Below are positions 26,240-26,662 of a DNA stretch of 64,000 nt, in pieces. Under the pieces are notes generated by a model, which saw only the letters and a program-made list of their open reading frames with translations, was not told the origin of the DNA and did not search any database. The position numbers and the translations under genes are program-made. The stretch comes from Escherichia coli (GTDB lineage Bacteria; Pseudomonadota; Gammaproteobacteria; Enterobacterales; Enterobacteriaceae). The stretch lies in NCBI RefSeq assembly GCF_003334355.1, contig NZ_QOWP01000002.1; one strand, written 5' to 3'. The first letter of the stretch is position 1, and each line of letters starts with the position of its first letter.

Positions 26240-26662
26240 AGCACGTCCTCTGGTAAAAAATTACCAACCCTGTCAATCCACAAGAATATAGATACTGCAA
26301 AGACGGTTTAAACATGTGTTCATATTTAAACATGTGCTCATAGTATGCATGTTTTACGTAAAGTAAATTACCGCCAGAGAGGCTAAATGGGCAGATTTGA
26401 GCAGGCTCACAAAATGCGATTAAATGCCTGAATTACAAAAGCGAGGAATTTGTGACGGGATGCACAGAACAGGAACAATAAAAAAGGGCAGAAAATAATC
26501 TGCCCTTGAGGAAATAACCTTAGTGTTTGATGAACGTTTCAAGTTTCTACTGAAAGATAAAACCATTTAAATTCATAAAATTACATTCACAAGCTGGTCA
26601 TTCCCTTTGCGCTCATCCAATGATACAGGGCAGGAAATTTCTGCCCTGTAACACACCTTTTA

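Follow-up and report, generated by a model that had tools for sequence, protein, structure and literature searches.

What does a tandem 18-bp direct repeat do in front of psuK in Escherichia coli, and which regulator, if any, would recognize it? The question was addressed by computational analysis of a stretch of 64,000 nucleotides of E. coli DNA, referred to here as the window, together with related loci from other bacteria. An earlier sequence-only reading of the window had reported two adjacent 18-bp copies with one mismatch at 26307-26342, some 70-100 bp upstream of the psuK start. That description proved exact. Unit 1, TTTAAACATGTGTTCATA (26307-26324), and unit 2, TTTAAACATGTGCTCATA (26325-26342), directly abut and share 17 of their 18 bases, the sole mismatch being T/C at 26319/26337. 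The pair lies 68-103 nt upstream of the ATG of psuK, which is encoded on the minus strand (25298-26239). The repeat and the operon that it presumably controls are located as follows.

26307-26342, minus strand: tandem 18-bp repeat, reading TATGAGCACATGTTTAAA then TATGAACACATGTTTAAA on the psuK strand; proposed two-site operator.
23028-26239, minus strand: psuK-psuG-psuT operon, presumed to be controlled (psuK 25298-26239, psuG 24372-25310, psuT 23028-24278).

It is apparent that the repeat is real and non-random. Tandem Repeats Finder (TRF) returned it with a period of 18, 2.0 copies and a score of 65. No other 18-mer in the 64-kb window is directly repeated with one mismatch or fewer, and such a tandem 18-mer arose in none of 60 first-order Markov simulations. 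Further copies of the 18-mer, with up to three mismatches allowed, were not found in the window. Two tandem repeats of other lengths were observed. A 21-bp repeat (25263-25302, TRF score 66) is situated at the psuK stop/psuG start and encodes an N-terminal peptide repeat of PsuG, KISPEL / LQISPEV; a 26-bp repeat with indels (1.9 copies, TRF score 72) is found at 2885-2935.

A further partial copy, catgtttta, had been placed just downstream of the repeat. It is indeed present, but it is an inverted rather than a direct copy, matching the reverse complement of the repeat unit (CATGTTTAA), and in the direction of psuK it lies upstream of the repeat. Each repeat unit itself contains a 12-bp dyad, GARCA-NN-TGTTT, with the consensus GAACA-NN-TGTTY / GARCA-NN-TGTTY. 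These elements are listed below, with positions given relative to the promoter discussed further on.

26348-26356, no strand assigned: orphan AAACA half-site, TAAAACATG on the psuK strand, inside the -35/-10 spacer.
26328-26339, minus strand: dyad A, core GAGCAC|ATGTTT, directly after the -10 hexamer, with its axis on the predicted transcription start.
26310-26321, minus strand: dyad B, core GAACAC|ATGTTT, with its centre 18 bp downstream of that of dyad A, at about +18.5.

The symmetry is most evident in Escherichia albertii, in which site B, GAACATATGTTC, is a perfect 12-bp palindrome. That each unit is dyad-symmetric suggests binding by two dimers rather than recognition of a direct repeat. 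The sequence-only reading, which had seen in the adjacent repeats a site typical of a regulator, was right in that this is a conserved promoter element of the regulator-bound kind; its units are dyad-symmetric 12-bp sites.

Conservation was determined from a PsuK scan, which gave 11 loci from Escherichia spp., Citrobacter, Buttiauxella and one Raoultella MAG, and from an upstream alignment of 12 sequences from these four genera. The blocks TTGTGA-N6-TCAwATCT, ATTTAC(T)TT, TAyyAT, RARCAyrTGTTy (dyad A) and GAACAyrTGyTy (dyad B) are all retained, as is the spacer AAAAC around catgtttta. From the CRP-like site through dyad B the alignment is free of indels, and the flanking sequence diverges. The same promoter-operator layout, with dyad A kept, is present in Affinibrenneria (Pectobacteriaceae). 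The spacing of the dyads is invariably 18 bp in Enterobacterales and Pasteurella, and 19 bp in Neisseriales.

Within E. coli, the intergenic sequence matches that of strain 510016 at 100% identity and that of K-12 at 98%, the repeat region of K-12 being identical, and the 46 bp at 26303-26348 are identical in 3633 complete E. coli genomes. No copy-number or length variants were seen among the hits sampled from 4214 E. coli genomes with this main allele; the copy number is constant among sampled strains, so that the element does not behave as a variable-number tandem repeat. All of the SNPs sampled in the main allele fall outside the dyads and both promoter hexamers, and the only disruptions seen were IS1 events. 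In E. coli VE-T9 (L032, 340-1100), IS1 is inserted exactly between dyads A and B, with the target duplication TAAATATG. In E. coli L1_E925 (L027), an IS1-associated deletion has taken out the -10 hexamer together with both dyads and the 5' portion of the psuK gene. In E. coli O26 RM10386 (L028), psuK is a pseudogene.

A short-query BLAST search had given the impression that 22% of E. coli genomes are without the region. This was rejected, as a longer query reveals a second allele, 80-90% identical, with both dyads, in approximately 1179 genomes. In strain Ecol_AZ155 it reads TTTACA-N16-TATTAT-GAACATGTGTTT-AAATAT-GAACACGTGCTC, and its two units match at 14 of 18 positions; in E. albertii and the other genera the second unit is similarly divergent. 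It is the two-dyad architecture, then, and not the 18-bp identity, that is conserved. The 17/18 identity, flanks included, is limited to the main E. coli/E. whittamii-type allele, which suggests local homogenization of site B by site A.

The significance of this architecture depends on where the promoter lies, and the following elements were assigned.

26362-26367, minus strand: predicted -35 hexamer, TTTACT; TTTAC is invariant in the 12-sequence alignment, and the hexamer holds base 26365, at which a recurrent adaptive SNP occurs.
26340-26345, minus strand: predicted -10 hexamer, TACTAT, separated from the upstream -35 by 16 nt; on the psuK strand the repeat begins with the final three bases of this hexamer.
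26333, minus strand: predicted transcription start (+/-2 nt), approximately NC_000913.3 2,259,390, placed from the -10 position only; 5' UTR of about 94 nt.

Each hexamer matches the sigma-70 consensus at four of six positions, with a spacing of 16 nt, and in the 12-sequence alignment the -10 is kept as TAyyAT at a fixed spacing. The pair was not listed by a consensus scan because it falls below the 9/12 cut-off used. The alternative promoter that the scan did list, TTTAAA (26312-26307)/TATATT (26290-26285), is not conserved outside Escherichia and was rejected. A perfect 10-bp palindrome, TTTACGTAAA, was also observed at 26353-26362, overlapping the -35 and the spacer, together with a GTAAA-GTAAA direct repeat; it is Escherichia-specific.

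Data bearing on the promoter come from experimental evolution. A single-allele SNP, A to C at NC_000913.2:2257444 (psuK/fruA), has arisen independently in many mice (PMC7518454, PMC9509342), and psuKp A to C, again as one allele, was found recurrently, in three populations kept in long-term stationary phase (PMC7858067). The SNP corresponds to position 26365 of the window (NC_000913.3 2,259,422), 23 bp beyond the repeat, and converts TTTACT to TTGACT on the psuK strand. The conversion from NC_000913.2 to NC_000913.3 used an offset of 1978; with it, four published srlR mutations fall on the correct codons and residues, and the psuK/fruA base is an A. A single recurrent allele that brings the hexamer closer to TTGACA is what would be expected of a -35 up-mutation, and not of the loss of a binding site. 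The papers reporting the SNP call it a promoter-region change and do not give the -35 reading; changes in psuK expression and in growth are reported by the authors.

The SNP, by mapping to the -35 hexamer, pins the promoter, which would put the centre of dyad A at +1 and that of dyad B near +18.5. On this promoter assignment, dyad A would cover -6 to +6 and dyad B would occupy +13 to +24. The psuK strand thus reads TGTGAGCCTGCTCAAA-N28-TTTACT-N16-TACTAT-GAGCACATGTTT-AAATAT-GAACACATGTTT-AAACC. Rather than preceding the promoter, the repeat covers part of the -10 hexamer and the predicted start and extends to about +24. Dyads over and just past the predicted start are both in repressor positions. 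At a spacing of 18 bp, or about 1.7 helical turns, the dyads would lie on different faces of the helix, which is not the usual arrangement for cooperative binding.

Within the window the site appears to be confined to this promoter. Neither weight matrices nor dyad patterns of 12 bp and 14 bp gave a credible second site in the 64 kb; isolated pattern matches were found inside the yeiE and yejB coding sequences, and one at 51109. The sequence-only reading had proposed a search for the motif upstream of nupX, rihB and yeiI. Neither the 18-mer nor the dyad was found upstream of these genes or of yeiL. That reading had also known of no described operator here, and the searchable literature likewise yielded none: no paper on this operator, or on the regulation of psuKGT, was found. 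We therefore read the element as a conserved and, it appears, undescribed putative bipartite operator over the psuK transcription start, in a promoter of probable CRP type, and the conservation and placement of the dyads make it quite probable that they are a functional protein-binding operator.

Class I CRP sites are 22 bp in length, resemble TGTGA-N6-TCACA and are centred near -61.5, -71.5 and so on. A candidate of this kind is found upstream of the psuK promoter.

26396-26411, no strand assigned: CRP-like site, TGTGAGCCTGCTCAAA, with its centre at 26403.5, or -70.5 from the predicted start; class I position.

Compared with TGTGA-N6-TCACA, its left half is perfect and its right half matches at four of five positions. 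In the 12 aligned sequences TTGTGA-N6-TCAwATCT is kept, with no indels between it and the -35, and similar sites are present in Affinibrenneria and Pasteurella. The site is not in the main-text CRP table of PMC12871828.

The surroundings of the promoter contain two further elements of interest. On the upstream side fruA ends at 26663, and a terminator-like hairpin follows it; on the downstream side a small hairpin immediately precedes psuK.

26477-26507, minus strand: intrinsic terminator-like hairpin with a T-run, downstream of fruA.
26252-26265, minus strand: small hairpin, GGTAATTTTTTACC, immediately 5' of the psuK Shine-Dalgarno sequence AGAGGA.

The first of these should insulate the psuK promoter from fruBKA read-through. 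The second has six pairs, with one compensatory change (U-A to C-G or the reverse) across genera and a U-G pair in E. albertii, and it may set psuK translation or mRNA stability. Two near-identical GGGCAG...CTGCCC hairpins in fact follow fruA, at 26625-26649 and at 26477-26507, of which only the second has a T-run. They bracket approximately 120 bp present in Escherichia, and Buttiauxella has a single terminator directly after fruA; the arrangement looks like a duplicated terminator flanking an inserted segment.

A protein that would bind the dyads was sought among the genes that accompany them. The candidates named in the sequence-only reading were YeiL and the HTH domain of YeiI.

18694-19782, plus strand: yeiI, whose product joins a winged-HTH (HTH_24) to a PfkB kinase-like domain; proposed operator-binding repressor.

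In Citrobacter and Buttiauxella, psuK-psuG-psuT is followed by a convergent yeiI (HTH_24 + PfkB), nfo and yeiH, and in Affinibrenneria psuKGT is likewise convergent with yeiI. In Yersinia, Serratia, Photorhabdus, Xenorhabdus, Pasteurella, Paludibacterium and Aquitalea, the operon starts with an HTH_24-PfkB fusion, followed by psuG. These loci were searched with a tandem-dyad model derived from Escherichia/Citrobacter-group sites only (a symmetric matrix, with the central NN ignored and a spacing of 18 or 19). The top match of the model over the whole 9-13 kb was the 5' end of the psu operon for seven of the eight distant loci. These matches scored 8-14 bits above the runner-up, and 0-8 of 300 simulated loci reached the observed score. 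In Xenorhabdus, which has the fusion, no clear tandem dyad was found by the model or by simulation. The psuKGT loci of Aeromonas jandaei and a Bartonella sp. have no HTH-PfkB gene in the approximately 6-kb flanks examined, beyond which one could lie, and have no dyad pair.

Dyads were found together with an adjacent or fused HTH-PfkB gene in at least 10 loci, in comparisons that are partly not phylogenetically independent, and the co-occurrence holds with Xenorhabdus as the exception. The 372-aa gene calls in Yersinia and Serratia probably include a false 9-residue N-terminal extension that covers the dyads. An extended palindrome with the same half-sites, AACCAAACA-NN-TGTTTGGTT, was observed 250-290 bp upstream of the HTH-PfkB operon in Yersinia (L023, about 5745-5764), Serratia, Photorhabdus and Xenorhabdus (L024, L033, L034), and could be a distal auxiliary operator.

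These comparisons support YeiI, which is marginally favoured as the binder of the dyads. It is also possible to suppose that the dyads are an operator for an unlinked or global regulator, such as a regulator of nucleoside or carbon catabolism encoded elsewhere. The conservation and position of the dyads would be the same in that case, as they point to a putative binding site and name no binder. There is, moreover, no dyad near yeiI, and no yeiI mutation is among the reported adaptive changes. Against this, the HTH-PfkB protein is the only regulator consistently encoded next to or inside dyad-bearing psu operons, from Enterobacterales to Neisseriales, and the two loci without an HTH-PfkB neighbour are also without dyads. 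The site is not known to resemble the CytR, Cra, PurR, DeoR, ArcA, PhoP, ArgR or TyrR consensus in sequence or spacing, and sites for all of these proteins were considered and rejected on those grounds. PhoP deserves mention in that each E. coli repeat unit holds TGTTTA, the hexamer of the PhoP box (TGTTTA-N5-TGTTTA). The hexamers of the repeat are 18 bp apart, however, and not 11, and the second is TGCTCT in the other genera and in the other E. coli allele, and PhoP was rejected for these two reasons. Overall, a binder other than YeiI is considered unlikely.

Less probable still is that the element acts as RNA, with the transcribed dyads (+1 to about +30) pairing into a 5' stem-loop that affects psuK mRNA stability or translation or binds an RNA-binding protein. 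The 97-nt leader does fold with z = -2.6, the repeat forming a stem, and a consensus fold of nine sequences pairs dyad A with dyad B. Such pairing is open to any two adjacent palindromes, however, and a compensatory change is seen in only one of 11 pairs, while two central pairs are broken in the main E. coli allele. A hairpin would need neither the half-site sequence rAACA/TGTTy nor self-symmetry within each unit, yet these are the features that are conserved. A search of 25800-27200 against Rfam 15 gave nothing near the gathering score. We regard this reading as improbable.

The other candidate, YeiL, is a Crp/Fnr-family regulator encoded between rihB and psuT, and its gene adjoins psuT in E. 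coli. The site can also be read as TGAAC-N4-GTTYA, which has the 5-4-5 layout of FNR and PrfA boxes. The loci of Citrobacter, Buttiauxella and Affinibrenneria nevertheless retain the dyads and yeiI and lack the nupX-rihB-yeiL block, and it is for this reason that YeiL is disfavoured. In addition, the distant dyad-bearing psu operons have no Crp-family neighbour, and there is no dyad in the yeiL/rihB intergenic region. The nupX-rihB-yeiL block itself lies between yeiI and psuT in E. coli (19838-22957), and its absence from the Citrobacter/Buttiauxella locus (L016-L020) indicates an insertion into an older yeiI/psuKGT neighbourhood. Of the two candidates originally named, YeiI thus gains comparative support and binding by YeiL appears very improbable. 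Finally, a neutral, functionless local duplication would account for the 17/18 identity, flanks included, which is specific to one E. coli allele and suggests a recent homogenizing event, but it can be virtually dismissed given two dyads at the same positions and spacing in every genus examined and the lack of length variants in sampled hits from approximately 4200 E. coli genomes with the main allele.

The structure of YeiI was considered with respect to its proposed role as the repressor. YeiI and its homologues match PF13412 (HTH_24) followed by PF00294 (PfkB), and thus possess a DNA-binding domain. Residues 56-360 match E. coli pseudouridine kinase structures (7vkp, E = 3e-66); residues 1-55, the HTH, have no solved counterpart, as no HTH-PfkB structure includes the HTH. 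The HTH recognition region, SRSxVAxHIMxL, is conserved throughout the YeiI orthologues and the fusions, in line with the conserved rAACA half-site. In the kinase-like domain, PsuK and the fusions keep the motif GAGD, which is GADD in all of the YeiI orthologues examined and GADE in Affinibrenneria. From the known roles of the PfkB anion hole and catalytic Asp, GADD would impair catalysis, and YeiI looks like a sensor rather than an enzyme. The identity to the HTH-PfkB fusions is 59-60% for PsuK and only 47-51% for YeiI. Together with the GAGD/GADD split, these values fit duplication of a bifunctional HTH-PsuK, split into the kinase PsuK and the regulator YeiI.

No dyad was found near nfo-yeiI in E. 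coli, and so there is no sign of autoregulation of yeiI in this organism. Two very different alleles of yeiI (18694-19782; L037, 9002-10090) occur in the same genomic context: 2060 of 5423 E. coli genomes have an allele only approximately 81% identical at the DNA level, and the split in psuKGT-fruA is similar. The gene is still described as uncharacterized (PMC9061257, PMC12506659).

The arrangement proposed here bears comparison with several known systems. As in promoters of the lac, gal and deo types (class I CRP plus an operator at the start site), psuKp has weak -35 and -10 hexamers, a CRP-like site near -70.5 and dyads over and just downstream of +1, and the products of its genes (kinase, glycosidase and transporter) all serve one nutrient. 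It differs in that the psuK dyads are adjacent, 18 bp from centre to centre, rather than distant looping partners, and in that its regulator and inducer are candidates proposed from sequence. ROK repressors (NagC, Mlc and XylR) combine an N-terminal winged-HTH with a sugar-kinase-like ligand sensor and control the catabolic and transport operons of their ligand. YeiI is similar in having a winged-HTH and a kinase-like domain turned candidate sensor, but the latter has the PfkB/ribokinase fold, not ROK/ASKHA, and its closest relative is the pathway's own kinase, PsuK. A third comparison is with the bifunctional enzyme-repressors BirA, NadR and PutA. The fusions of Yersinia, Pasteurella and Aquitalea keep GAGD and head their own operon, which suggests one protein that is both enzyme and autoregulator, whereas in E. 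coli the roles appear to be split between PsuK, without an HTH, and YeiI, with GADD.

The repeat, the symmetry of its units, their conservation, their association with HTH-PfkB genes and the location of the published SNP are all observed; from them we infer repression, its agent, its inducer, a dependence on CRP and the site of transcription initiation. A locus-specific repressor dimer would bind each dyad and block RNA polymerase, pseudouridine or a derivative would relieve repression, and cAMP-CRP would supply activation. YeiI would be the most likely repressor: its winged-HTH is joined to a PfkB domain resembling pseudouridine kinase, in which the catalytic motif GAGD has decayed to GADD. 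In other lineages the operon opens with one HTH-PsuK fusion that seems to serve as both kinase and repressor. A bipartite operator for YeiI as a pseudouridine-responsive repressor, with CRP as activator, is the account that we favour, with moderate confidence.

One set of observations sits uneasily with it. In gut-evolution experiments repressors such as frlR, dgoR and srlR are repeatedly inactivated, and psuK is hit only by the -35 SNP, no yeiI or operator mutation being reported. If simple repression were the limiting factor, this pattern would be hard to reconcile with it, except where YeiI has further roles or conditions in the gut already induce the operon.

Pseudouridine, which derives from RNA, is plentiful in the gut as a nutrient, and adaptive mutations arise repeatedly at psuKGT both in mice and during long-term stationary phase. 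The present analysis provides a predicted promoter map for this operon, consisting of a CRP-like site, a -35, a -10 and two operators, and gives the recurrent SNP a mechanistic reading as a -35 up-mutation. It also provides, for the most thoroughly studied of bacteria, a testable regulator assignment and so a missing piece of E. coli K-12 regulation. In practice, the putative operator and promoter have a bearing on strains that are engineered to produce pseudouridine. In evolutionary terms, the locus is a candidate case of a kinase that became a pseudokinase sensor after gene duplication. More broadly, YeiI and HTH-PsuK may constitute an uncharacterized family of enzyme-derived regulators acting on tandem GAACA-NN-TGTTC dyads. 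In the Enterobacteriaceae/Pectobacteriaceae a bifunctional ancestor would have been duplicated and split into PsuK, which lost the HTH, and the pseudokinase repressor YeiI (GAGD to GADD). This proposal is tentative, the balance tipping slightly against it. If it is true, the y-gene yeiI would gain a function, and it would explain a psu operon that is near-silent in the laboratory and is unlocked in the gut by a single -35 change.
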